This document shows, in pieces, positions 1,944-21,673 of a stretch of 64,000 nt of DNA (the stretch's first letter is position 1; each line of letters begins with the position of its first letter). The position numbers were made by a program, and so were the translations under genes. The DNA comes from Candidatus Aenigmatarchaeota archaeon (lineage in GTDB: Archaea > Aenigmatarchaeota > Aenigmatarchaeia > QMZP01 > QMZT01), in contig JAFGCI010000006.1 of the NCBI GenBank assembly GCA_016932735.1, positions 36,167 through 100,166 on the forward strand, given 5' to 3'. The notes below the pieces were generated by a model, which was given only the letters and a program-made list of their open reading frames with translations, ran no database searches and was not told the DNA's origin.

Positions 1944-2987
1944 TCAGAGCAAAAGATACCCCATGAAAGCGGCGAAAAGCGCGATGAATAGAATTCCTTC
2001 ATTCCTCGTTATCCTGCTCCCCGTCTTCATGAAAACTATGAGCAGCAGTGAGACAAATATCATGAATGGTATCTCAATGAAGACTGTTCTTGATGCTATA
2101 TCGGATATGGGTCTTACCAGAGCAGCGGCGCCTCCGACTAAAAGGATGTTGAAAATATTGCTTCCTATGACGTTTCCTATTGTTATATCGTGCTTCTTTT
2201 TCATTGCCGAAATGACGCTTGCGGCAAGCTCCGGAAGAGACGTTCCGAAGGCCATGAGCGTCAGCCCTATTATGAGCTCCGGTATCCCGAAAGCGTACGC
2301 AAGAGACCTTCCGTTATCAACGAGCATCTGGCCTCCGAGTCCTATCCCCGCAATACCTATTATAACCATCAGGATGCTTACAGGCATCCTCTTGTTGGGC
2401 GGCCTTTTCTTCCTTTCTTCAGAGTGCGCTTCCTTTTGTTTCTTTGCATCCCCGAGGGTTTTCCATAGATAGAATGCGAAGCAGGCAAGAAGTATGATTC
2501 CGTCGATTGCTCCGATTATGTAAATATCCATCGCCGTTTCGAAGAGTCCGAAAGAGAGGATAAACAGAAGCGTTGCTGCAAGCATCATGAACTTTGAATC
2601 AAAACCGGTTGCTTCCTTTACAAGAAGCGGTGATATTATCGCAGGAAGACCGAGGACTATCAGTATGTTGAAGATATTGCTTCCGACGATGTTCCCGACA
2701 GATATTCCGCCTGAGCCTATGAAGCTTGCATAGACGCTGACCATGAACTCGGGCATTGAAGTCCCGAAAGCGACAATTGTCAGCCCTATAATCATGTGCG
2801 ATATTCCGTAATGCTCCGCAATCTCAGAACCTCCATCAACGAGAAAATCGGCGCCCTTGATAAGGATTGCAAGACCCGCGACAAGAAGAGATGTGGACAG
2901 GGAAACGCCGGAACCTGAAATCAGCGCCGCTATCAGCGATAGGGCGATTATCAGTATGAATATCCTGTCCGTCCGGGATATTTTCAT
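1944..2987 (-). CDS. Ca2+/cation antiporter (CaCA family, Na+/Ca2+ exchanger-like)
   Basis: 347 aa polytopic membrane protein with two alpha-repeat signatures 'GTSMPE' and 'GTSLPE' plus 'GSNIFNIL' motifs typical of CaCA exchangers. Confidence 0.8.
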   Translation of the reverse strand: MKISRTDRIFILIIALSLIAALISGSGVSLSTSLLVAGLAILIKGADFLVDGGSEIAEHYGISHMIIGLTIVAFGTSMPEFMVSVYASFIGSGGISVGNIVGSNIFNILIVLGLPAIISPLLVKEATGFDSKFMMLAATLLFILSFGLFETAMDIYIIGAIDGIILLACFAFYLWKTLGDAKKQKEAHSEERKKRPPNKRMPVSILMVIIGIAGIGLGGQMLVDNGRSLAYAFGIPELIIGLTLMAFGTSLPELAASVISAMKKKHDITIGNVIGSNIFNILLVGGAAALVRPISDIASRTVFIEIPFMIFVSLLLIVFMKTGSRITRNEGILFIALFAAFMGYLLL

Positions 2988-3050
2988 AAGAAATAATTAC
3001 ATGCGCTTTTTTATATTACTCAATATTTGCATATTTCTTAAGAAGTGAAA

Positions 3051-3133
3051 CGCTGGAACTGGGATTTGAACCCAGGAACCCCGAAGGGAACAGGGTTAGC
3101 AACCCTGCGCCTTAACCGCTCGGCCATCCCAGC
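3051..3133 (-). tRNA. tRNA-Ser (anticodon GCT), long variable arm, no intron
   Basis: Reverse complement is GCTGGGATGGCCGAGCGGTTAAGGCGCAGGGTTGCTAACCCTGTTCCCTTCGGGGTTCCTGGGTTCAAATCCCAGTTCCAGCG. It forms a 7-bp acceptor stem (one GU), an anticodon loop TTGCTAA (GCT), a long variable arm, a T-arm CTGGG/TTCAAAT/CCCAG and discriminator G. Confidence 0.8.
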
Positions 3134-4015: not shown

Positions 4016-4591
4016 TCAATATCTCACAATATTCACTTCTTTTCCTGAAAGATCAAAAACTCTCGACGGGAGGCCGTCAATCTCGCCGGCATCTATTGCT
4101 ATATCTGTCAGAGCCTTTATATCTTCCGGAAGCTCGCTTATCTTCTTTATCGGCTCTTCGCCGGAAAGGTTCGCGGAAGTGGTTACAAATGGTATTCCGG
4201 TTGTCCGGACAAGGTCTGTGAATTTGTTCAGCGGTATCCGGATTCCTATGGTTTTCTGTAATGAGACGAGTTCTTTCGGGGCTGAAGGCGTTGCCTTAAG
4301 TATCACTGTATAAGGTCCCGGAAGGAGTGATTTTACGAAAGCGAGATTCTCTTTCGTTCCCGTCGCGTTTTCCTCAATCCAGTCAAATGATGGAGCTATG
4401 ACTGACATCGGCTTTCCGGGGTCTCTCCCCTTTGCGTTCTTGATTCTCGAAACAGAGCCGGAATTGTTAGCATCGCATCCTATTCCGTAAACCGTGTCCG
4501 TCGGATAGACGAAAACCTTTCCGGCTTTTACCGACTCTATGATGTAATCCTTTTTAGAACCAAGGGCGTCACTGAGCCTTATTATTTCCAT
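4016..4591 (-). CDS. L-threonylcarbamoyladenylate synthase (TsaC/Sua5/YrdC family)
   Basis: The 'VFVYPTDTVYGIGCDA' motif and overall YrdC-domain pattern; 191 aa. Confidence 0.8.
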   Translation of the reverse strand: MEIIRLSDALGSKKDYIIESVKAGKVFVYPTDTVYGIGCDANNSGSVSRIKNAKGRDPGKPMSVIAPSFDWIEENATGTKENLAFVKSLLPGPYTVILKATPSAPKELVSLQKTIGIRIPLNKFTDLVRTTGIPFVTTSANLSGEEPIKKISELPEDIKALTDIAIDAGEIDGLPSRVFDLSGKEVNIVRY

Positions 4592-4641
4592 AATGTTATA
4601 TTGTCGATTCAGTATTTATTTATCAAATCGAATCTGATATT

Positions 4642-5673
4642 ATGTTTAATTTTATGCAGAGGCAGAAACGCCTAAAGGAAAGCATGAAGGAAGCCGGACT
4701 AGATTGTCTTATAGTTTCTGACAGAAAGGACATTTATTACCAGACAGGCTTCCTTCCGCTTGACGGCGATTTCGCTTTTCTTATATTCACCACAGAAAAA
4801 AGGCCGGAACTCTTCGTAAATCCGGTTTCCAACAGGGCGGAGAGCCTGAAAACAGCCGATACATGTTTCGTAAAGGATGTAAAAGAGATGGTCGGTAATG
4901 CAGGCTTATCGGGAACAATAGGATTCGATGAGAAGAGTTTGTCTGTCTCATCTTTTATGGATATATCAAAGCACCTGAGAAAGCATCGCCTGAAAAAGCC
5001 GTGCTCAGATTTAATCAGGTCGCAGAGAGCGGTAAAAGATGAAAGCGAAATATCGGAAATGGGAAATGCCGTGGCAGTTACTGAAAAGATTCTTTCCGAT
5101 GCCAGAGGCTATATGGAAGGAAAAAGAGAATTCAATATCGCGAAAAAAATCGAGAAGTCCATGCTCGAAAAACTCATGGAGAGATCCTTTGAGACCATCG
5201 TCGCTTCAGGAAAGAACTCATCTCTCATACATTACATTCCGGGCAAAGGTCTTATCGGGCAGAAGAGTCTTGTTGTCATTGACATGGGGATTATTTCCAA
5301 TAACTATTGCTCTGACATGACGAGAACATTTTGTCTGAAGCCCGGCCCGAAGGAGCAGAAGCTCCATGATAATATTCTTGAGGTTCAGGAAACTCTTATT
5401 GACAGAATCCATGAAGGCGTCCGCGTAGAGGAAATCAATAGAATCTATCAGGAAGAAATGGCAAAAAAAGGATATGCTGTCAATCATGGCTGGGGACATT
5501 CCATCGGACTGGACGTCCATGACCCCGGCTTTAAGGAATTCAGGAAGGGGATGGTCATAACAGTCGAGCCGGGCGCATACATCAAAGGGTTCGGAGGCTG
5601 TCGCATCGAGGATATGATTCTTGTTGGGAAGGCTAAAAGTAAGAAAATGACGAAAATGAAGAGTTCGCTTTAG
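4642..5673 (+). CDS. M24 family metallopeptidase (Xaa-Pro dipeptidase/aminopeptidase-like)
   Basis: Pita-bread fold signatures 'HGWGHSIGLDVHDPG', 'GMVITVEPGAYI' and 'GGCRIEDMILV'. Confidence 0.8.
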   Translation: MFNFMQRQKRLKESMKEAGLDCLIVSDRKDIYYQTGFLPLDGDFAFLIFTTEKRPELFVNPVSNRAESLKTADTCFVKDVKEMVGNAGLSGTIGFDEKSLSVSSFMDISKHLRKHRLKKPCSDLIRSQRAVKDESEISEMGNAVAVTEKILSDARGYMEGKREFNIAKKIEKSMLEKLMERSFETIVASGKNSSLIHYIPGKGLIGQKSLVVIDMGIISNNYCSDMTRTFCLKPGPKEQKLHDNILEVQETLIDRIHEGVRVEEINRIYQEEMAKKGYAVNHGWGHSIGLDVHDPGFKEFRKGMVITVEPGAYIKGFGGCRIEDMILVGKAKSKKMTKMKSSL

Positions 5674-6523: not shown

Positions 6524-7351
6524 TTATTCAAGTATTACACGGTCAATCTTTGCGACTTGTGACTTGGTTTTTCCTAAACCTGAGAATTTGACTGATGAAG
6601 AACCTATCCCAACTATGCTTCCTTCGATTGCGAAGAAAACATTATCTCCCTTCTTTATTCCTGAATCGAAATCGCTGACATAATCCCCGATTATCGGTTT
6701 CCCGTTTCTTACGTCCTGCCCGTTTTCTTTTTTTATCGAAATCCTTTTTACCCCGACCTTCAGGAGGACATCCTCTATCTCAAGAAGATGAGCTTCAGGC
6801 TCCTTCTCCAGCCTTTCAAGCGTGACGGCCTCATCGACGCTGAATGGTCCTACTCCCGTCCTCCTGAGCCATGACATCTGCGCTCCGCTTCCGGCCTTTT
6901 CGCCCATGTCGTGGCAGATTTTTCTGATGTATGTTCCGGCCTCGCAGAGAATCCGGAAGGAAACCAATCTTCCGTTAGTTTCAAGGATTTCAAAGGAACG
7001 GACGATCCTTTCCCTTTCCTTTCTTGCGACTGCCGATTTCACAGGCGGAATCTGCTTTATTTTTCCGGTGAACTGTTTTGCAAGTTCTTTTACAGAATCT
7101 TCTGAAATATCTTCATGAAAAAGCATCTCGCCTTCATACTCCTTGTCCATTCCATTAAGGAGGGGCATACACTTCCTCGCTTCACCAAGAGCTATAAGAA
7201 GGAGTCCTGTGACGTTTGGGTCAAGCGTTCCTGCATGACCTGCCTTTTCTATTCCCAGAATTCTCGTGACTGATTCGACTACATCGAATGATGTCGGGCC
7301 TGCTGGTTTGTCTATTAGGACGACGGACTTTTGTAAATTCGCCATAACCAT
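6524..7351 (-). CDS. cbf5: tRNA/rRNA pseudouridine synthase Cbf5 (TruB family, with PUA domain)
   Basis: The 'GHAGTLDPNVTGLL' catalytic motif, N-terminal 'IDKPAGPTSFDVV' and a C-terminal PUA-like region. Confidence 0.85.
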   Translation of the reverse strand: MVMANLQKSVVLIDKPAGPTSFDVVESVTRILGIEKAGHAGTLDPNVTGLLLIALGEARKCMPLLNGMDKEYEGEMLFHEDISEDSVKELAKQFTGKIKQIPPVKSAVARKERERIVRSFEILETNGRLVSFRILCEAGTYIRKICHDMGEKAGSGAQMSWLRRTGVGPFSVDEAVTLERLEKEPEAHLLEIEDVLLKVGVKRISIKKENGQDVRNGKPIIGDYVSDFDSGIKKGDNVFFAIEGSIVGIGSSSVKFSGLGKTKSQVAKIDRVILE

Positions 7352-7383
7352 GAATTGTTTTATATCTTATTTAATTCCTTCAT

Positions 7384-8004
7384 CTAGAATACTTTCCTTT
7401 CAAAGAATGTTTCCACAGTATCCAATATTCGTTTTGATTCTCTCCGGAAATCGTCCCTCCTTTGAACGGTTTCGAATCTTTTCCCTTTTCTGCGGAGAAT
7501 CAGACTCCCGTATGCTTCTCTGGAGTATAATTCAATGCCTGAATATCTGGAAAGGAGAAGATAACCATCATCTGAAACCAGCCTTGAAACCTGCCCCAGT
7601 CTTTCTTCTGTCATCTCAGGTGTCATTATATGCATTGCTTGGAGAATGCCGTTCAGGAAGAAAACCGCCTTGAATCGTTTATCGGGGAAACTGTTTCTAT
7701 ACCCGTCCTGAACAGAATAAATTCCCTTCTTCCTGTTCCTTCTTGCAATCCATATGTTGCCGGGCATTATATCGATTCCCTCTGCATCATTGCCACAAGC
7801 ATATGATATCTCTTCGGTCGTCCTGCCCCCCGAGCATCCTATATCAAGAAGTCGTCTTCCTTCCACTCTTCTCGGATATATGTTACCTCCAAAAACCAGA
7901 CCGACTCTACCGTAAAAACTGAAATTACTGAGATGATATCCCGAACTTCTGTCATAATTTTCTCCGGATGTCTTTTTTGAAAACATGTTCAGTAGCATGT
8001 GCAT
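7384..8004 (-). CDS. class I SAM-dependent methyltransferase
   Basis: Motif I 'LLDIGCSGG' and overall Rossmann MTase pattern. Confidence 0.6.
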   Translation of the reverse strand: MHMLLNMFSKKTSGENYDRSSGYHLSNFSFYGRVGLVFGGNIYPRRVEGRRLLDIGCSGGRTTEEISYACGNDAEGIDIMPGNIWIARRNRKKGIYSVQDGYRNSFPDKRFKAVFFLNGILQAMHIMTPEMTEERLGQVSRLVSDDGYLLLSRYSGIELYSREAYGSLILRRKGKRFETVQRRDDFRRESKRILDTVETFFERKVF

Positions 8005-13047: not shown

Positions 13048-13116
13048 AACTTACTCTTTCTTACCTATTTCTCTAATTATATTTTCAAAAATCCAAATGT
13101 TTATAAAGGTGCTAGA

Positions 13117-13164
13117 ACAACAATATATTGTTAAATTCTGGGGGGAAGACACAACATATTGTGT
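13117..13164. promoter_or_regulatory. two tandem NrdR-box-like palindromes upstream of nrdR-nrdD
   Basis: The first box is acaacaatatattgtt at 13117-13132; it contains the perfect 14-bp palindrome aacaatatattgtt. The second is acacaacatattgtgt at 13149-13164. The second matches 15/16 of the consensus acaCwAtATaTwGtgt as I remember it. The box centres are 32 bp apart. An archaeal TATA-like tttataaa sits at 13100-13108. Confidence 0.6.
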
Positions 13165-13207
13165 TTTTTCATTCCTAAGTAACACAAATCATTTTTCTGG
13201 TGTTAGC

Positions 13208-13672
13208 ATGAAGTGTCCATATTGTTCCAGTCAGGAATCGAAGGTCGTTGACAAGAGAACTTCCGAGACTTCTGATGCTATCAGAAGACGAAGAGAATGC
13301 CTGAAATGCGAGAATCGGTTCACTACTTTTGAGCGCGTTGAAAGGGGAGACCTCCGCGTCGTCAAAAAGGACGGAAGAAGGGAGCAGTTCGACCGCCAGA
13401 AACTCCTTGCAGGAATTAACAAGGCATGCGAAAAACGACCGGTGACGGCGGAGCAGATTGATGATATTGTTGATAAGATTGAAGCCGACCTCAGGAAGAA
13501 GGGGGAACAGGAAATACCAACCACAACAATCGGCAACACTATAATGAAGCATCTCAAGAAGCTGGATAAGGTCGCATACATCAGGTTCGCTTCTGTCTAC
13601 AAGGACTTCGCGGACCTTGAGGACTTCGGCCGCGAAGTCGATAAATTGATAAAAAGGCCTGCATCGCAGTAG
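13208..13672 (+). CDS. nrdR: transcriptional repressor NrdR (zinc ribbon + ATP-cone)
   Basis: 'MKCPYCSSQESKVVDKR...CLKCENRFTTFERVE' zinc ribbon followed by an ATP-cone ('VVKKDGRREQFDRQKLLAGINKAC'). Start taken at the internal ATG at 13208 (MKCPYC). Confidence 0.85.
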   Translation: MKCPYCSSQESKVVDKRTSETSDAIRRRRECLKCENRFTTFERVERGDLRVVKKDGRREQFDRQKLLAGINKACEKRPVTAEQIDDIVDKIEADLRKKGEQEIPTTTIGNTIMKHLKKLDKVAYIRFASVYKDFADLEDFGREVDKLIKRPASQ

Positions 13673-15960: not shown

Positions 15961-16647
15961 ATGAATATCGGGGGGTTTGTCAAGAACACGCTAATAGACT
16001 ATCCGGGAAAGATGTCGTGCATCATATTCACACAGGGATGTTCTTTCCGCTGTCCCTTCTGCCAGAACAAAGAGCTGGTTGACGTCCCCGATGATGCAGA
16101 ATCCATAAAGGAGTCATACATCTTTTCATTTCTCAAAAAAAGAAAAGGCTTGCTTGATGCGGTTGTAATAACCGGAGGAGAGCCGACACTTCAAAAAGAC
16201 CTTCCCGATTTCATAAGGAAAGTCAGGGAGCTTGGATTTCTCATCAAGCTCGATACCAACGGATGGGCTCCTGAAATTCTTGAAAGGTTGTTAAAAGAGA
16301 ACCTAATCGATTTTGTTGCAATGGACATCAAGGCTTCAAAGGATAATTATGAGAAGGCGGCAGGCGTCAAAGTAAATATATATAATATAGAGAAGTCAAT
16401 CCGCCTTATACGTTCATCAGGACTCCCATACGAATTCAGGACGACTGTCGTCCCCGGAATCCACGATAAAGACGACATCAGGAAAATGGCTCAGTGGATT
16501 GAAGGCTCAAACCTCTTCCTGCAGAAGTTCGTCCCTCAGAACACGCTTGACCCCGAATACGAAAAGAAGAATCCATTCACTAACAAGGAAATGGAAGAGA
16601 TGAAAAAGATTGCGGGGCAGTTTGTGAATTGTGGGCTGAGAGCTTAA
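15961..16647 (+). CDS. nrdG: anaerobic RNR activating enzyme NrdG (radical SAM)
   Basis: The 'GCSFRCPFCQN' CxxxCxxC cluster and 'VVITGGEPTLQ'. An alternative GTG start at 15952 overlaps the stop of the preceding small ORF. Confidence 0.8.
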   Translation: MNIGGFVKNTLIDYPGKMSCIIFTQGCSFRCPFCQNKELVDVPDDAESIKESYIFSFLKKRKGLLDAVVITGGEPTLQKDLPDFIRKVRELGFLIKLDTNGWAPEILERLLKENLIDFVAMDIKASKDNYEKAAGVKVNIYNIEKSIRLIRSSGLPYEFRTTVVPGIHDKDDIRKMAQWIEGSNLFLQKFVPQNTLDPEYEKKNPFTNKEMEEMKKIAGQFVNCGLRA

Positions 16648-16751
16648 TGTTCGCTTTCTGCCCGAATAGGGCGCAAATAACGAATAAAATTCGTTAAATA
16701 GTTGTTTTTCTCAATAGATTTTTCACTACTGGCTCTTGCTTCAATTGGTTA

Positions 16752-16765
16752 GGAAAACGGGGGGG
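16752..16765. repeat. left inverted repeat aaaacGGGGGGGGG (G9 homopolymer) of cassette 1
   Basis: Perfect reverse complement of 19299-19312. A second shared 12-mer (tagatttttcac, about 16716-16727) lies about 30 nt outside. Confidence 0.7.
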
Positions 16766-16810
16766 GGAGCTATAATACTATTTTATAAATAATGTTTTCA
16801 ATTTTGGAAT

Positions 16811-17683
16811 ATGCCGAAAAGAAATATGTTGTGGATTTCATTTGCTGTCATTTTTTTGATTTCATTTAGTGGGTGTATCCAACAAAACACGAAAGAAAAT
16901 GCAGAATCAATCGCACAGGAATTTGCTATAAATTTACAAAAATCAGACTATGAAAGCTTATATGATTTATTCATACCTGATCTCAAAAGCATGAGAAAAA
17001 AATCAGATTTCGTTAAATATGTGAATATAAAAGGATCGCCACTTGATAACAATTATATAATTTTTGACAAAGTCGTAATGCAGGGAGATAATGAAGCTTA
17101 TGCATATTATACGTTATCAAGTGGCATATTTGAGGCTAAAGTTCCTCCTATGCATTTGATTTTTACGTCGGAAGGTTGGCGTGTTGACGCATTTTCAGAT
17201 TACTTTTCTGCTGGATGCATCATAGATGATGACTGTTCAGCAGATTATCCTCGGTGTAGCAAAAATTTAGAATGTGTAAAATGTGTAAGTGATGCAGATT
17301 GCTCCGATTCGGGAAAGAAGCATTGTGATAGTGTTCTTAATATCTGTCATGAATGTATAGAAGATTACCATTGTCCCAAAGATAAACCAATATGCTATGG
17401 GTTTAGTTGTATTGAATGTAGGAAAAATTCAGATTGCCCAACAGAAACTCCATATTGTAATTATGTGTTAGGCAGTGGTTATGTTTGCAATAATAATCCT
17501 ACCGGGATAGAATGTATAGAGGATGTAGATTGTATCGTACTTTATGGAACAAAAAAGATGTATTGTAATGCGAATGGAAAGTATATTAGATTTACTCACG
17601 AGGATGAATGCATTTATTGCAGAGACGAATCAGACTGTCCTAGAGGAAAAGATTATTGCATTTCAGGTGAATTCTGTGTCTAA
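16811..17683 (+). CDS. putative lipoprotein with C-terminal cysteine-rich repeats
   Basis: Signal and lipobox-like 'FLISFSGC'. The C-terminal half has four 'C-x2-C-x3-5-DC-x5-8-C' repeats (e.g. CVKCVSDADCSDSGKKHC, CIECRKNSDCPTETPYC). Confidence 0.6.
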   Translation: MPKRNMLWISFAVIFLISFSGCIQQNTKENAESIAQEFAINLQKSDYESLYDLFIPDLKSMRKKSDFVKYVNIKGSPLDNNYIIFDKVVMQGDNEAYAYYTLSSGIFEAKVPPMHLIFTSEGWRVDAFSDYFSAGCIIDDDCSADYPRCSKNLECVKCVSDADCSDSGKKHCDSVLNICHECIEDYHCPKDKPICYGFSCIECRKNSDCPTETPYCNYVLGSGYVCNNNPTGIECIEDVDCIVLYGTKKMYCNANGKYIRFTHEDECIYCRDESDCPRGKDYCISGEFCV

Positions 17684-18104
17684 ACTTGGATATAGTGAAG
17701 ATGATAAAAGAAAACACCTTGAGTTTATTCAGTTGGCTATAAACAGAATGGCGGCTAATTCATTTATCCTAAAAGGTTGGAATATTACACTTGTTGTAGG
17801 TCTATTTGCTGTTTCAATAACAAAAAACCAAAATCTTTTTTTAATACTTGCTTTATTACCGGCCATTGCTTTCTGGGGTTTGGATTCATATTATCTGAGA
17901 AAAGAAAAACTGTTTCGTGAACTGTATAACTTTGTAAGGATGAGAGATAAGAGTCTAATAGATCCTTATTCATTGGAGACAAAGGAATTTGAGAAAAATA
18001 TCAAAAGTTGGTTTCATATACTATTTTCACGAACCGTGATAGTATTACATGGCCCCATAATTATATTTATTTTATGTTTTTCTATGATTCTATGGGGTGG
18101 TTAA
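17676..18104 (+). CDS. small 2-3 TM membrane protein (SLATT-like candidate effector), partner of the TIR-like protein
   Basis: It has an N-terminal amphipathic helix (DDKRKHLEFIQLAINRMAANSF). Three hydrophobic segments follow: 'WNITLVVGLFAVSI', 'LFLILALLPAIAFWGL' and C-terminal 'VIVLHGPIIIFILCFSMILWGG'. The stop TAA at 18102-18104 lies 2 nt before the TIR start. Start uncertain (GTG 17676 or ATG 17748). Confidence 0.5.
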   Translation: MSKLGYSEDDKRKHLEFIQLAINRMAANSFILKGWNITLVVGLFAVSITKNQNLFLILALLPAIAFWGLDSYYLRKEKLFRELYNFVRMRDKSLIDPYSLETKEFEKNIKSWFHILFSRTVIVLHGPIIIFILCFSMILWGG

Positions 18105-18106
18105 AT

Positions 18107-18598
18107 ATGGCAAGAAAAGTATTTTTCAGTTTTCATTATGAAAAGGATGCATGGAGAGCTGGACAGGTTAGAAATAGTAATGTCGTGCGTTCAGAAGATA
18201 CTACTGGATTCATAGATGCATCTGAATGGGAGAAAGTTAAAGAGAGAGGACAAGATGCAATTAAGAACTGGATTAATGAACAATTAAAAGGTACTTCGAT
18301 CACAGTAGTTCTAATTGGAAGTGAAACATCTGAAAGGGATTGGGTTAAATACGAACTTCAGAGAAGTTATGAAAAAGGAAATGCCTTTTTGGGGATATTC
18401 ATACATAATCTTGAAGATCAAGAAAAAAGAACAACGTCAAAGGGGGATACCCGATTTGGTGAATTAGGAAAAGATTCTGAAGGTAAATCTGTCTATTTAT
18501 TCCAACTCGCTAAGTTTTACGATTGGAAAAATGATGATGGTTACAACAATTTTACAAAATGGATTGAAGAAGCTATCTCAAACCAAAATGGAAACTAA
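18107..18598 (+). CDS. TIR-like domain protein (DUF1863 / ThsB-like)
   Basis: 'MARKVFFSFHYEKDAWRAGQVRN...ITVVLIGSETSERDWVKYELQRSYEKGNAFLGIFIH' carries the FFSFHY-x-D signature and the 'VLIGSET..R.WV.YE' pattern of Thoeris ThsB-type TIR domains. 163 aa from ATG 18107. Confidence 0.75.
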   Translation: MARKVFFSFHYEKDAWRAGQVRNSNVVRSEDTTGFIDASEWEKVKERGQDAIKNWINEQLKGTSITVVLIGSETSERDWVKYELQRSYEKGNAFLGIFIHNLEDQEKRTTSKGDTRFGELGKDSEGKSVYLFQLAKFYDWKNDDGYNNFTKWIEEAISNQNGN

Positions 18599-18975
18599 CT
18601 CTTCTTATACCCAAACTTCTTCTCATAATCCCTGTGGTTCATGATATCTAATATCAAAGAAATAATCTCGACTTCGTTGCCTCTTATAGTATATATCATT
18701 CTCCATGCTCCCGAAAGGTTGATTTTCCACAGGTTGTTTACATCATAATTTTTGATATATTCTTTTGGTGTTCTGTCTTTCGGGATATGAATTCCATATT
18801 GCGGGTTATCTCTTAACAACTCGATTTTCTGTTTAATAGAGTTAAGAAGCGTTTGGTGGTCACTGTTAGTAATACCCTTGGAAATCTCTTCGCCTACGAG
18901 TTTGTTCAAATCATCAAACTCTTCTTTAGCTTCTCCGGTAATAATGACTTTGGTGATCTTTCCTTTGAACATCAC
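18595..18975 (-). CDS. RelE/ParE-family type II toxin
   Basis: C-terminal 'NLWKINLSGAWRMIYTIRGNEVEIISLILDIMNHRDY' matches the RelE/YoeB-fold pattern. A 4-nt ATGA overlap links it to the upstream ORF. Confidence 0.7.
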   Translation of the reverse strand: MMFKGKITKVIITGEAKEEFDDLNKLVGEEISKGITNSDHQTLLNSIKQKIELLRDNPQYGIHIPKDRTPKEYIKNYDVNNLWKINLSGAWRMIYTIRGNEVEIISLILDIMNHRDYEKKFGYKKS

Positions 18976-19244
18976 AACTCAACTCCCTCTTTTATCGCCT
19001 TGTCAAGTTTCGGGCTGGGATTGTATATCCATAAAATTCCTTTCCTGCCGTCAATTATTTTACCGCTGTTCTCTAAATAGCTTAATATGACATTCAGCGT
19101 TTGGTGCATTATTTTTACAGGCAGTTTTTTCTTTATATCTTCCCGTGTCATTAATTCATTTGATTCCTTTAGAACTTCTTCTACCATTAACACAGTCTTC
19201 AGATTCGGGTAATGAATGACCTCGGCTTTTTGCATACAAAACAC
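18972..19244 (-). CDS. putative cognate antitoxin (90 aa)
   Basis: Upstream of the RelE-like gene on the minus strand and overlapping it by 4 nt. No antitoxin family recognised. Confidence 0.45.
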   Translation of the reverse strand: MFCMQKAEVIHYPNLKTVLMVEEVLKESNELMTREDIKKKLPVKIMHQTLNVILSYLENSGKIIDGRKGILWIYNPSPKLDKAIKEGVEL

Positions 19245-19298
19245 CTTGTATAAACTTATATAATATTATATATAGAAATATATAAACTTTTGCTTTCG

Positions 19299-19312
19299 CC
19301 CCCCCCCGTTTT
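19299..19312. repeat. right inverted repeat CCCCCCCCCgtttt (C9) of cassette 1
   Basis: Perfect reverse complement of 16752-16765. The 12-mer gtgaaaaatcta at 19343-19354 is the reverse complement of tagatttttcac at about 16716-16727. Confidence 0.7.
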
Positions 19313-19634
19313 CAATAACTTTGCGAGTTGGTTAGCTGTGAAGTGAAAAATCTACTCTCGCCTTCGGCTCGGTTTCCCTGCGGTCAACGAGAAAAACAGG
19401 AAATATGCGGGAAAACTATACAAAGTTGTTGAATTTTCCCCAAATTTCAGCTTCGCTGAAACTATCGCATATTTCCATCGGTTATGCTCAATTGCGAATC
19501 CGCCTCTGGCGAGGTTACCATAGAAAATTCTCTTGTTGTTGCCTTCGTTAAAATTCACAAAACGAAAAAATAACGAAATTGCTTTGCAAATCGTCTAACA
19601 AAATTTTAACGAAATTTTTTCTTATCTTTAACAA

Positions 19635-19645
19635 GGGTTGCCGCC
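19635..19645. repeat. inverted repeat gggttgccgcc (preceded by ttttttctt) bounding cassette 2
   Basis: Reverse complement of ggcggcaaccc at 20990-21000, which is followed by aaaagaaaaaa. Confidence 0.6.
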
Positions 19646-19646
19646 T

Positions 19647-20468
19647 TTACTTATCTTTCTCAATCAATACAAATAACATTAGAAGAAGCATAGTAGACCT
19701 TTGTTCATTATCATAGTTAATCTCTCTTCCATGTAAAATTGGGTGTCTGAAATCCTTTGAATAAACATTACTTTTAGTATGCTCGCCGAATTTTGAAGAA
19801 TTATTAAAAATTTTTATAATTAGTTCTCCCAGCGAACATTCTATTGGTTTTCCATTTTTCCCTAAAATTAAATTCCCTTTAACATCTATCAGATTTTTGC
19901 TATTAAATTTATTCTCGATTAATCCTTGATTAATTCCAATATCCCAAAGTATACCTTCAATTTGCGATAACAAAAGAGGAATAGAGCTTATATAATCCTT
20001 ATTTTTATGATGCTGAATAGCCTTTTCTAAAATCTTTTCTCTTGCTTTAATAATCTTATCCGTTCTTACCTTTGAAATCAATTCATTCAATAACTTGTCA
20101 TCTTCAAAATCAGATATTAGTTGTTTCCATACTTCTTCTTTTCCGCTCGCTTTAAGCTTATCCTTGAGTTCAGAAGCGTAAGACATTGATATTGCTTCAA
20201 TCCACCCAAATTCTTTAAGAAATTCTTCCCAGCCTTTGAAATCAAAATTTTTTGCTATCTCAGTAAGAGGTTTTAATGATTGTGCAATTGATTGAGATAG
20301 TAATTGCATTCTTTTAAATGGTTCAGTAAGTGCTTCCATTTGTGCCTGAAATTGCAGATTGAATAATTGAATTGGTGCCAGAGAAATAGAAATTTTATCA
20401 TGAAGTTCTTTCATTATTTTGTTTATTTGATCCAGATTATTCATTTGTATCATCTTCAAGTTCTTCAT
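19647..20468 (-). CDS. hypothetical protein with C-terminal HEPN-like Rx4H motif (candidate Abi-like nuclease)
   Basis: 273 aa, AT-rich. 'SKDFRHPILHGREI' fits R-x4-H. Lies 18 nt downstream of the SHOCT gene on the same strand. Confidence 0.45.
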   Translation of the reverse strand: MKNLKMIQMNNLDQINKIMKELHDKISISLAPIQLFNLQFQAQMEALTEPFKRMQLLSQSIAQSLKPLTEIAKNFDFKGWEEFLKEFGWIEAISMSYASELKDKLKASGKEEVWKQLISDFEDDKLLNELISKVRTDKIIKAREKILEKAIQHHKNKDYISSIPLLLSQIEGILWDIGINQGLIENKFNSKNLIDVKGNLILGKNGKPIECSLGELIIKIFNNSSKFGEHTKSNVYSKDFRHPILHGREINYDNEQRSTMLLLMLFVLIEKDK

Positions 20469-20486
20469 TGTCCATTTAAGACAGAA

Positions 20487-20942
20487 TTATAATCCAAGCA
20501 ATTTTTTCTTTTTTTGCTCAAATTCTTTTTGAGTTATAACTCCTTTCTTCATTAAACTATATAATTTCTCTATCTCATCTGCATCGCTAGAAGTAGATTT
20601 TTCTGAAGAACTATTTGCTTTCTCAATGTGTTCTTTTATTTCAAGAGCCTTTTCGTAATTATCTTTACCATTGAACGAAACCGTATTTTCATCACTTACT
20701 GCATTAAAAACGCCACCTCTAGCCTCAATACCTCCTGGCAAGGAAAATTGAATATATCCTGCGGTAAACCCTGGTTTTTTAATCTGAATTGAGGTTATAT
20801 TTTTGAAGTAAATATCTTTCTTTCCTTTTAACCCATGAATCATGAAACCCATTGCTGTTCCTCTATCTAGCCTAACAAATTTTTCATAAAGTTCTATTCT
20901 TCCATTTGTTCCTTTGAATTCAATTATTGGTTTTTGTTCCAT
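20487..20942 (-). CDS. SHOCT-domain protein with N-terminal bPH/DUF4429-like domain
   Basis: C-terminal 'EIEKLYSLMKKGVITQKEFEQKKKKLLGL' is a typical SHOCT motif. Start set at the internal MEQKPIIEF. Confidence 0.6.
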   Translation of the reverse strand: MEQKPIIEFKGTNGRIELYEKFVRLDRGTAMGFMIHGLKGKKDIYFKNITSIQIKKPGFTAGYIQFSLPGGIEARGGVFNAVSDENTVSFNGKDNYEKALEIKEHIEKANSSSEKSTSSDADEIEKLYSLMKKGVITQKEFEQKKKKLLGL

Positions 20943-20989
20943 GATAACACTATTATATCTAAGGAATTTATAAATTCTTCTAATTGAAC

Positions 20990-21000
20990 GGCGGCAACCC
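20990..21000. repeat. inverted repeat ggcggcaaccc (partner of 19635-19645)
   Basis: See the partner repeat. Confidence 0.6.
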
Positions 21001-21251
21001 CCAAAAGAAAAAACTACGGCAACAACGAATTTTCGGCGGACTCGCAACTCGAAATTTTTGCCTTCGGCATTGTTGCACTAAAATTTCGTCCTAACGGAGA
21101 GCATAACAGGGCTTAACCGACTACGAAACCTTGCAGGTTTCTCCGACCCAAATTTTTTCTTCAGCTCTGTTCCGCTTCGCTCCACGAGGAAGAAAAAACT
21201 TCCCTTAAGCCCGATGTTATACGCAGTTTCTATAACTAAAAAACAAGTCTC

Positions 21252-21371
21252 TACATCAAATCAACAAAGCTCGACCTTCCTTCGCCTGCAATCTTCTTCT
21301 CCTTCTTCTTCGGCTTTTTCAGGTAAGACATTCTTGTCTTGACCTTCTTGGTGGAAGTTGGCGCTTTCATA
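21252..21371 (-). CDS. small basic ORF (39 aa, MKAPTSTKKVKTRMSYLKKPKKKEKKIAGEGRSSFVDLM)
   Basis: Hand translation of the minus strand. Lys-rich; could be a small ribosomal or nucleic-acid-binding protein, or spurious. Confidence 0.2.
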
Positions 21372-21463
21372 TCCAATAATTAGCATTAAGATTAAAAACA
21401 GTTTTGCATGAAAACAACGCCCAAATTTAAATATTCTTCCTGACAATAGGTATTGATATAAAT

Positions 21464-21673
21464 GGGCTCGTAGCTCAGCCTGGTGAGGCTTTAAGCCTTT
21501 AGGCAATTAGAGCACCAGACTCTTAAACCCAGGATATGCCGAATTTCCTTCTGGAAATGATGACTTGGAGATATCTGGGGGTCGCGGGTTCGAAACGGTA
21601 TTTGCAAAGTAATTTGTAAATGTGTTTCATGATGCACCATGCATCAGTTGCCGGTGAAATCCCGTCGAGCCCA
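21464..21673 (+). tRNA. tRNA-Lys (anticodon CTT) with three putative introns
   Basis: Exon 1 is GGGCTCGTAGCTCAGCCTGGT (21464-21484). Exon 2 is AGAGCACCAGACTCTTAA (21509-21526). Exon 3 is TCTGGGGGTCGCGGGTTCGAA (21574-21594). Exon 4 is TCCCGTCGAGCCCA (21660-21673). Spliced, they give a 74-nt cloverleaf with a 7-bp acceptor stem, D-stem GCTC/GAGC, anticodon stem CCAGA/TCTGG, loop CTCTTAA and T-arm GCGGG/TTCGAAT/CCCGT. The introns are about 24 nt (D-loop 20/21), about 47 nt (37/38) and about 65 nt (T-loop 59/60). Confidence 0.55.

Follow-up and report, generated by a model that had tools for sequence, protein, structure and literature searches.

A 64,000-nucleotide stretch of the genome of Candidatus Aenigmatarchaeota archaeon (assembly GCA_016932735.1, contig JAFGCI010000006.1, positions 36,167 to 100,166; the whole stretch is referred to here as the window) contains a 2.6-kb block in which two convergent operons are held between exact inverted sequence blocks. 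The arm on the right is the 5′ leader of a toxin-antitoxin (TA) module, and it travels between genomes with that module. The arm on the left is an inverted copy of leader blocks A (13 nt) and B (15 nt), located beyond the second, convergent operon; an origin for it is proposed below. The interpretation we favor, to which we assign a probability of about 40%, is that the arms are the boundary repeats of a small insertion cassette that lacks a transposase and is anchored by the mobile TA module. The block as a whole is only a candidate for a mobile cassette. The host belongs to the DPANN archaea, which have very small genomes and few recognized mobile elements or defense systems.

Paired inverted blocks around two convergent operons

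An earlier note on this DNA, made from the sequence alone, described perfect 14-nt inverted repeats containing nine-nucleotide runs of G or C, with a second exact 12-mer pair outside them. Both pairs proved to be slightly longer than described. The 14-mer AAAACGGGGGGGGG at 16754-16767 on the forward strand recurs at 19299-19312 on the reverse strand, its left copy lying 2 nt to the right of where the note had placed it, and pairwise comparison extended the match to an exact 15-mer, GAAAACGGGGGGGGG (GAAAACG9; 16753-16767 and 19299-19313). The 12-mer TAGATTTTTCAC, found at 16715-16726 and inverted at 19343-19354, was extended in the same way to an exact 13-mer, TAGATTTTTCACT (16715-16727 and 19342-19354). 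Runs of nine G or C were found at two sites only, one in each arm, as the note had said, and the longest such run elsewhere in the window was six. A third collinear exact inverted block of 10 nt, TGTTTTTCTC, lies farther out (16703-16712 and 19389-19398). Its left copy overlaps an 11-mer common to the nrdG flank of the nearest relative at hand, a locus designated L001, and may be native flanking sequence or, because it is T-rich, a chance match.

To express how unusual this arrangement is, a composite was defined as two collinear inverted exact blocks, each of at least 12 nt, within 5 kb. The window contained a single such locus. Among 200 dinucleotide-shuffled versions of the window, one contained the pattern, as did one among 500 shuffled versions of the low-GC island in which the block lies. 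A gapped alignment of one arm to the other scored 35, with a null maximum of 27 in 1,000 shuffles. The paired repeats are real, and chance does not account for them. In a Logan assembly made independently from run SRR13394437 (L175), the sequence over 16677-19249 was 100% identical, the G9 tract of the left arm included, and the structure is therefore not the artifact of one assembler. The two assemblies of the source sample agree both in G9 and in the orientation of the left junction.

Likeness between the arms is confined to the exact blocks. The spacers between A and B gave no alignment when one was inverted and a good alignment in direct orientation, consisting of CT.TTGC followed by an exact copy of TTGGTTAG (16745-16752 and 19328-19335), the 8-mer whose direct orientation on both sides the earlier note had correctly pointed out. 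An exact 8-mer arose between shuffled spacers with a probability of 0.008 in direct orientation and 0.012 in either orientation, and for the common core at both junctions (TTGGTTAG plus CT.TTGC) P was ~0.01. With S denoting the spacer, the left arm reads A-S-B and the right arm B′-S-A′, with inverted flanks on either side of a core in direct orientation.

This geometry bears on one suggestion of the earlier note that was not supported, namely, that the arms may be recombination sites of an invertible segment. In such a phase-variable segment, a site-specific recombinase would flip the 2.5-kb interior. The repeats are exact and inverted, and both arms are identical within the genome, as such a segment would have them. 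However, inversion keeps spacers inverted, and a direct core between inverted flanks would not be produced by inversion between inverted sites. No recombinase was found nearby among the scanned ORFs of the window, and the two assemblies show the left junction in the same orientation. As each operon is read from an inward-facing promoter of its own, a flip would switch nothing obvious. We consider an invertible segment highly improbable.

The right arm as the leader of a traveling TA module

Database relatives of the toxin formed more than 100 clusters at 79 to 90% identity, and the named ones came from DPANN archaea (Woesearchaeota and Nanoarchaeota). The antitoxin-toxin pairing was kept in 85 of 95 loci, and the pair was found in many differing neighborhoods. 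At the DNA level, homology among ~60 loci ran from the toxin stop codon (18591-18606) to ~19282-19298, just short of the C9 tract at 19299. Because this homology breaks off abruptly, on one side at the toxin stop codon and on the other just upstream of the transcription factor B recognition element (BRE) and TATA box, the alignments suggest unusually frequent recent transfer of the pair as a two-gene module. The module was not found on IMG/VR contigs.

Like type II systems of the RelBE/ParDE kind, the module has overlapping antitoxin and toxin genes behind a palindromic AT-rich promoter of their own, is conserved across many neighborhoods, and sometimes adjoins IS200/IS605-, IS630-, or Xer-type genes. 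It differs from them in a toxin that scores below the family cutoffs (21.7 bits against 23 for ParE_toxin and 25.8 against 27.9 for RelE_StbE), in an antitoxin-like protein that matched no family and no solved structure, and, in this lineage, in a leader of ~250 nt that carries a poly-G tract.

In two closer relatives, which come from other samples, the shared DNA extends through the leader. A locus from a metagenome-assembled genome (L178, GCA_964521635.1) has 18591-19447 in common with the window at 88.7% identity, and L095 (the same locus as L179) has 18591-19397 in common at 89.5% identity, as far as its contig end. The whole right arm is present in both, with the 13-mer exact in L178 and carrying one mismatch in L095. 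Their B-block tract is GAAAAC-T-G11, compared to G9 in the window, and both carry TTGGCTAG where the right spacer of the window has TTGGTTAG; read inverted, the L178 leader is C11-A-GTTTTC ... AGTGAAAAATCTA. The neighbors of L178 and L095 differ from those of the window on both sides. For example, L178 has MazG and NAD kinase genes upstream and an unrelated 47-aa gene and a Cys-rich gene downstream; this convergent Cys-rich gene was compared with the first open reading frame of the block (ORF1), and no homology was found. The 5′ leader belonging to the TA module constitutes the right arm. Since leader and TA are common to differing neighborhoods, the unit seen to move is ~857 bp, not the arm-to-arm cassette. 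Judged from the same alignments, the site just after the toxin stop codon is a point at which cargo changes.

The two arms in the window are identical at the G9 tract, TTGGTTAG, and the 13-mer, and these are the points at which the L178/L095 leader differs. The agreement within the window points to a copying event in the recent past, to concerted evolution, or to selection that favors ends that match. Outside the arm, the outer leader (19355-19447) is ~87% identical in L178, and homology stops at 19447. A hairpin in this outer leader (GGGGAAAA-N17-TTTTCCC, 19410-19440 in the window) shows a compensatory G>A / C>T pair in L178 (~1368-1400; GGAGAAAA...TTTTCTC).

Inverted flanks also occur around other members of the TA family. 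In L085 to L087, the pair lies between perfect 16-nt repeats, TAAGCCCCAGAAAACC and GGTTTTCTGGGGCTTA, that are flush with the promoter and the stop codon, and the 16-nt core of L085 sits within an imperfect inverted repeat of ~85 nt. Repeats of 26 nt and ~30 nt bracket the TA pair in L101 and L098, respectively. The inner ~20 nt of the repeat is common to L085, L101, and L167 despite different neighborhoods, and L116 has the leader seen in L085, with the downstream copy missing. Exact inverted flanks of at least 10 nt were present at 11% of TA loci, compared to 3% of mismatched-flank controls. In a gapped test at p ≤ 0.01, inverted flanks were found at 7 of 50 loci (0.5 expected) and direct flanks at 10 of 50. 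On these counts, inverted flanks were rejected as a general trait of the family; sequence comparison across lineages indicates that inverted-repeat bracketing is a recurrent minority feature with unrelated arm sequences. GTTTTC stood directly after the toxin stop codon at 7 of 58 loci, compared to a background of 0.7%.

Mobile-element genes beside the TA module were sporadic, with Xer-type genes in two lineages, Y1 transposase genes in three, and an IS630-type gene in one. In L088 to L094 and L114, which represent one lineage, the TA pair is followed immediately by a truncated gene encoding the C-terminal 104 residues of an Xer-type tyrosine recombinase (~4363-4680 in L088), and in L120 a full-length Xer-type homolog (2308-3102) stands directly 5′ of the TA pair. 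In L085, an IS200/IS605-type Y1 transposase gene (4504-5154) lies between two identical 20-nt palindromes, CCCAGCACTAAAGTGCTGGG, which are unrelated to the ends of the adjoining inverted-repeat-bracketed TA module.

Insertion cassette, shared leader, or relic

If the arms are boundary repeats, the A-S-B / B′-S-A′ geometry would be the footprint of an insertion. Two routes could lead to it. In one, recombination between a quasi-palindromic attB of the form A-S-A′ and an attP of the form B′-S-B, with the core around TTGGTTAG, would yield hybrid att sites. In the other, an element with B-type terminal repeats would have transposed and duplicated an 8-bp target, TTGGTTAG. In both, the enzyme would be supplied in trans. 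After insertion, the cassette would be stabilized by its TA pair, and exchangeable cargo would occupy the position behind the toxin stop codon, a defense operon here and other genes in L178 and L095.

The earlier note had likened the arms to terminal inverted repeats of a nonautonomous mobile cassette, and part of this stood. The repeats are non-random, the block between them is low in GC and horizontally acquired, its cargo (a TA pair and a defense candidate) is typical of mobile elements, the region is absent from L001, and similar bracketing is seen in L085, L101, and L098. What did not stand is the identity of the moving unit, which in the relatives is leader plus TA. Exact inverted 13- and 15-mers exist, yet the shared segment 18591-19447 is not bounded by them. 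The direct repeat of 8 bp, TTGGTTAG, is contiguous with the inner repeat in the left arm and lies 14 nt away from it in the right arm.

Several results weigh against an insertion cassette. A search for further copies of the two-block motif that covered the 64-kb window, related loci totaling 1.7 Mb, contigs of JGI metagenomes (with one exact composite pattern), and IMG/VR found none; nor was there a target site duplication around the 16715 and 19354 ends (boundary pair 16714/19355) or at the pairs 16702/19399 and 16752/19314. Copies and duplications were both among the signs that the earlier note had named. The cassette and the scanned ORFs of the window encode no transposase, integrase, or recombinase, and the window contains no homologs of the Xer, Y1, or IS630-type (DDE) genes found beside TA modules elsewhere. 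An empty (attB-like) or free (attP-like) compact form was absent from IMG/VR and the fetched loci. The arm-to-arm unit was seen nowhere else, L178 and L095 sharing TA and leader only, and homology to L178 extends beyond the outer 13-mer by 93 nt. Within the TA family, inverted flanks are found in a minority of loci. TTTTC(A) is all that the A and B half-sites have in common, and one recombinase acting on both is therefore an assumption. The 8-mer TTGGTTAG, expected by chance in ~1% of cases, was spotted post hoc. The island-free L001 also lacks an A-S-A′ site. In plasmid and phage records, nothing comparable to the cassette was found; the only match was 65 nt of ThsB coding sequence in Phocaeicola plasmids. 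Insertion at the center of existing palindromes was considered as well and rejected: in the 1.7 Mb, close GAAAAC...GTTTTC pairs were not enriched (10 and 21 observed, ~14 expected), and there was none of the CCCAGAAAAC.GTTTTCTGGG type.

Two known kinds of element are the nearest comparisons. Mobile insertion cassettes (MICs) and cargo-carrying MITEs (transposable elements of the miniature inverted-repeat kind) hold passenger genes between inverted repeats without a transposase and are moved by an enzyme in trans (PMC6542083). MIC231 of Bacillus cereus is an example. The present locus is similar in that two operons with no transposase, located in horizontally acquired DNA, are enclosed by exact inverted blocks. 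MIC ends, however, are contiguous and terminal, belong to a known insertion sequence (IS) family, have target duplications, and usually occur in several copies together with a cognate IS, whereas the locus in this DPANN host has split blocks whose spacers are unrelated, and the analysis found neither a cognate transposase nor an outer duplication nor a second copy. The locus resembles a MIC or cargo MITE in its working at most and is not classifiable as a member of either. The attL and attR sites left by large serine integrases are also similar, with outer and inner halves that are inverted copies, a direct center, and sites of 53 to 56 bp. Here, an integrase gene is absent from the cassette and its surroundings, and neither the attB nor the attP form was seen. 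In addition, L178 and L095 show the outer, "chromosomal" half traveling with the TA pair, a finding that a simple attB reading would not have led one to expect.

A tentative alternative is that the arms are a shared cis-regulatory leader, that is, two paralogous copies of a terminator, upstream element, and promoter that are inverted because the operons converge. In this reading, A and B would be bound by a single protein, either the antitoxin or a factor of the host, that co-regulates both operons, and the T5 tracts would terminate the upstream co-directional genes. An inward-facing promoter does stand behind each arm, the G9 tract ending 14 nt before TTTATAAA on the left (16782-16789) and 12 nt before TTTATATA on the right (19286-19279), and the order and near-equal spacing of A, 25 to 28 nt, B, 12 to 14 nt, and TATA are the same in both. 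A co-directional gene precedes each arm (nrdG on the left, a 273-aa gene on the right), exact blocks beside unrelated spacers resemble conserved binding sites, and as single strands the arms are not significantly structured. An AAAAC adjoining the BRE was found at 32 of 58 TA loci, compared to a 12% background, and again at another L085 promoter; since it is common in the family and recurs at this second promoter, AAAAC is probably a generic promoter edge, as the alignments have it.

The shared-leader explanation leaves the direct-orientation likeness of the spacers unaccounted for, and no regulator was identified. Inverted leader copies also occur without a gene behind them: the second arm of L085 has no downstream gene, and a purely promoter-regulatory reading therefore cannot explain L085. 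ORF1 homologs elsewhere lack such a leader, and arm-like sequence was absent upstream of those in L176, L184, and L185, so inheritance of the left arm together with ORF1 was rejected. The left promoter shows no significant likeness to TA promoters beyond G9, where shuffled queries did equally well in 33% of cases; this result led to rejection of the idea that the left arm is what remains of an entire TA promoter.

The G9 tracts 12 to 14 nt before both TATA boxes may also tune promoter output, since tract length differs between relatives. For the slipped-strand phase variation that the earlier note had raised, the length differences seen were those between lineages (G9 compared to T+G11). Whichever account of the arms applies, the poly-G tracts beside two promoters are a concrete candidate for transcription control by homopolymer length in an archaeon, and one that is testable.

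The left arm could instead be a nonfunctional relic, a patchwork copy of the leader created by template switching, a gene-conversion patch, or illegitimate recombination where the two operons were joined tail to tail. This is unlikely. The structure occurs once, its homology is limited to three short exact blocks with rearranged spacers, no enzyme, target duplication, or other copy accompanies it, and the arms match each other better than the right arm matches its orthologs, which fits recent local copying. But perfect blocks of 13 and 15 nt next to spacers that cannot be aligned are not what the random decay of a duplication would produce, and equal length of a hypermutable G9 tract on both sides argues for either very recent copying or constraint. 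The recurrence of inverted-repeat bracketing in independent TA lineages with unrelated arms also speaks against a relic.

Known archaeal site types can be set aside almost entirely. Origin recognition boxes (ORBs) have a G-string at their end and are found in pairs of inverted orientation (PMC1868953, PMC4010727), and the ORB/mini-ORB consensus is GTTCCAGTGGAAAC-AAA----GGGGG (PMC1868953). Within three mismatches, no match to the mini-ORB core TTCCAGTGGAAAC was present in the arms, and the window held 15 matches, compared to 19.9 expected. No Orc1/Cdc6-like ORF was recognized in the window, and the arms are separated by 2.5 kb of genes, where an origin would have an AT-rich element for unwinding. 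The attC sites of integrons were considered for a different reason, as archaeal integron cassettes are rich in TA and defense genes (PMC9668308). Archaeal integrons keep the bacterial architecture of tandem cassettes in the same orientation with folding attC sites between them (PMC9668308). Here, the operons converge and have their own TATA boxes, the window contains no tyrosine recombinase or integron integrase, and no RYYYAAC...GTTRRRY hairpin of 55 to 145 nt was found at any boundary, the sole candidate lying inside the ORF1 coding sequence. The arms are unfolded as single strands (z ~0). A hairpin-ended element of the IS200/IS605 type, or of the type formed by repetitive extragenic palindromes and their associated tyrosine transposases (REP/RAYT), was rejected because the arms are unfolded and the window has no Y1 homolog.

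If TA-anchored cassettes bounded by inverted repeats do move genes among DPANN archaea, they would provide a simple vehicle for the patchy cross-domain spread of defense candidates such as the ThsB-TIR/PDC-M50 pair (TIR, Toll/interleukin-1 receptor domain), and would explain how one TA pair comes to be found at 79 to 90% identity in many lineages of these archaea. Should the arms be no more than a duplicated leader, the block would be an ordinary small defense/TA islet at a variable tRNA-side site. A more far-reaching proposal is that DPANN archaea have a family of tiny transposase-less cassettes, all anchored by one highly conserved RelE/ParE-type TA pair, with lineage-specific inverted repeats, integration at quasi-palindromic sites by a recombinase acting in trans, and cargo carried between genomes behind the toxin gene (here a TIR defense pair of bacterial type), and that the window contains an integrated copy with hybrid attL and attR junctions. 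We regard this wider proposal as doubtful.

Cargo genes and the variable slot

The features of the block are listed in Table 1.

Table 1. Coordinates of arms, promoters, and genes in the candidate cassette (window numbering)
Feature	Position	Strand	Remarks
Left outer block TGTTTTTCTC, T5 tract	16703..16712	+	Inverted at 19389-19398
Left arm block A TAGATTTTTCACT	16715..16727	+	Inverted at 19342-19354; T5 tract, 3′ of co-directional nrdG
TTGGTTAG in left spacer (16728-16752)	16745..16752	+	Direct copy at 19328-19335
Left arm block B, GAAAAC+G9	16753..16767	+	Inverted at 19299-19313; ends 14 nt before TATA-like TTTATAAA
ORF1, Cys-rich predicted lipoprotein, 290 aa	16811..17683	+	No Pfam family
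PDC-M50A-like small membrane protein, 145 aa, GTG start	17667..18104	+	PADLOC PDC-M50A E=7e-44
ThsB-type TIR protein, 163 aa (PDC-M50B/ThsB)	18107..18598	+	Pfam ThsB_TIR E=2e-25; PADLOC ThsB E=5e-65, PDC-M50B E=7e-59
RelE/ParE-like toxin, 126 aa	18595..18975	-	Pfam ParE_toxin E=3e-4; NCBIfam RelE_StbE E=1e-5, both slightly under cutoff
Antitoxin-like protein, 87 aa	18972..19235	-	Paired with toxin
TA promoter edge CGAAAGCAAAAG (BRE-like) + TTTATATA	19279..19298	-	Read from sequence
Right arm block B, GAAAAC+G9 (C9GTTTTC on +)	19299..19313	-	Ends 12 nt before TA TATA box
TTGGTTAG in right spacer (19314-19341)	19328..19335	+	Direct copy of 16745-16752
Right arm block A TAGATTTTTCACT	19342..19354	-	Inverted at 16715-16727
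Outer TA leader: TGTTTTTCTC block (19389-19398) + hairpin GGGGAAAA-N17-TTTTCCC	19355..19447	-	

The left operon begins with ORF1, for which a weak match to the Cys-rich region of TraA was obtained and nothing better. Its homologs are 40 to 50% identical over most of the length of ORF1 or up to 69% identical over the N-terminal domain only. In L176 (4669-8838), an ORF1 homolog and two unknown genes are flanked by two NTP_transf_2 (Polbeta) genes, and this block, set within a V-type ATPase operon, has the gene for subunit A on one side and that for subunit B on the other.

The remainder of the operon is a PDC-M50A gene followed by a gene for a ThsB-type TIR protein (17667-18598), a pair observed here in an Aenigmarchaeote. 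The closest ThsB relatives other than the sequence itself are ~62% identical, and those with a named source are bacterial (Bacteroidota, Omnitrophica, and Acidobacteria), which points to cross-domain transfer of the ThsB-TIR/PDC-M50A pair. As in Thoeris and PDC-M50 systems, strong profile matches to PDC-M50A and to ThsB/PDC-M50B fall on adjacent genes of the same strand. In contrast to those systems, there is no ThsA effector of the SIR2 or Macro kind, and the host is archaeal while the closest relatives look bacterial. PDC systems are defense candidates that have not yet been validated (PMC12988326).

The block lies in an island of 31 to 35% GC, compared to ~44% elsewhere, between nrdG (ending at 16647) and a tRNA gene. 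The window is archaeal in its gene content, with split rpoB genes, rpoH, and rpoA′, and nrdD and nrdG stand upstream of the cassette. In L001, whose NrdG is 83% identical, the interval between nrdG and the tRNA gene holds one 80-aa ORF and no island. Homology between the window and L001 ends at the nrdG stop codon and restarts at 21423, in the tRNA promoter, and 16648-21422 is therefore a variable slot. The slot ORF of L001 itself lies between a short GC-rich inverted repeat, ACGATGGCGC ... GCGCCATCAT (7225-7556). Directly 5′ of nrdD and nrdG in the window is a gene for an NrdR-like regulator (13097-13672; zinc ribbon and ATP-cone, from the translation), and relatives of the NrdG of the source archaeon come mostly from candidate phyla radiation (CPR) bacteria and DPANN archaea.

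Between the outer TA leader and the next operon is a noncoding element of ~190 nt (19441-19623) that is 79% identical to positions 1136-1319 of L120, an unrelated TA locus. This element had no Rfam match and no conserved ORF, and an Rfam search of the noncoding stretches of the island at permissive thresholds returned nothing credible. The operon that follows (19636-20995, reverse strand) encodes a 273-aa protein without a known role (19647-20468) and a DUF4429/SHOCT protein (20487-20942). It lies within an exact 11-nt inverted repeat, GGGTTGCCGCC / GGCGGCAACCC (19636-19646 and 20985-20995), with additional inverted GGCAACAAC...GGCGGAYTCGCAA pieces; the 11-nt repeat is weak alone, because 11-mer inverted pairs within 3 kb are expected many times by chance.

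The tRNA gene that closes the slot is a tRNA-Lys(CUU)-like gene (21464-21673, forward strand) with three introns and exons at 21464-21484, 21508-21526, 21573-21594, and 21659-21673; the anticodon-loop intron boundary as listed is off by one base. It was missed by ARAGORN and Rfam on genomic DNA, and a cloverleaf was obtained after in silico removal of the introns. The L001 ortholog (~7705-7945) has other intron sequences.

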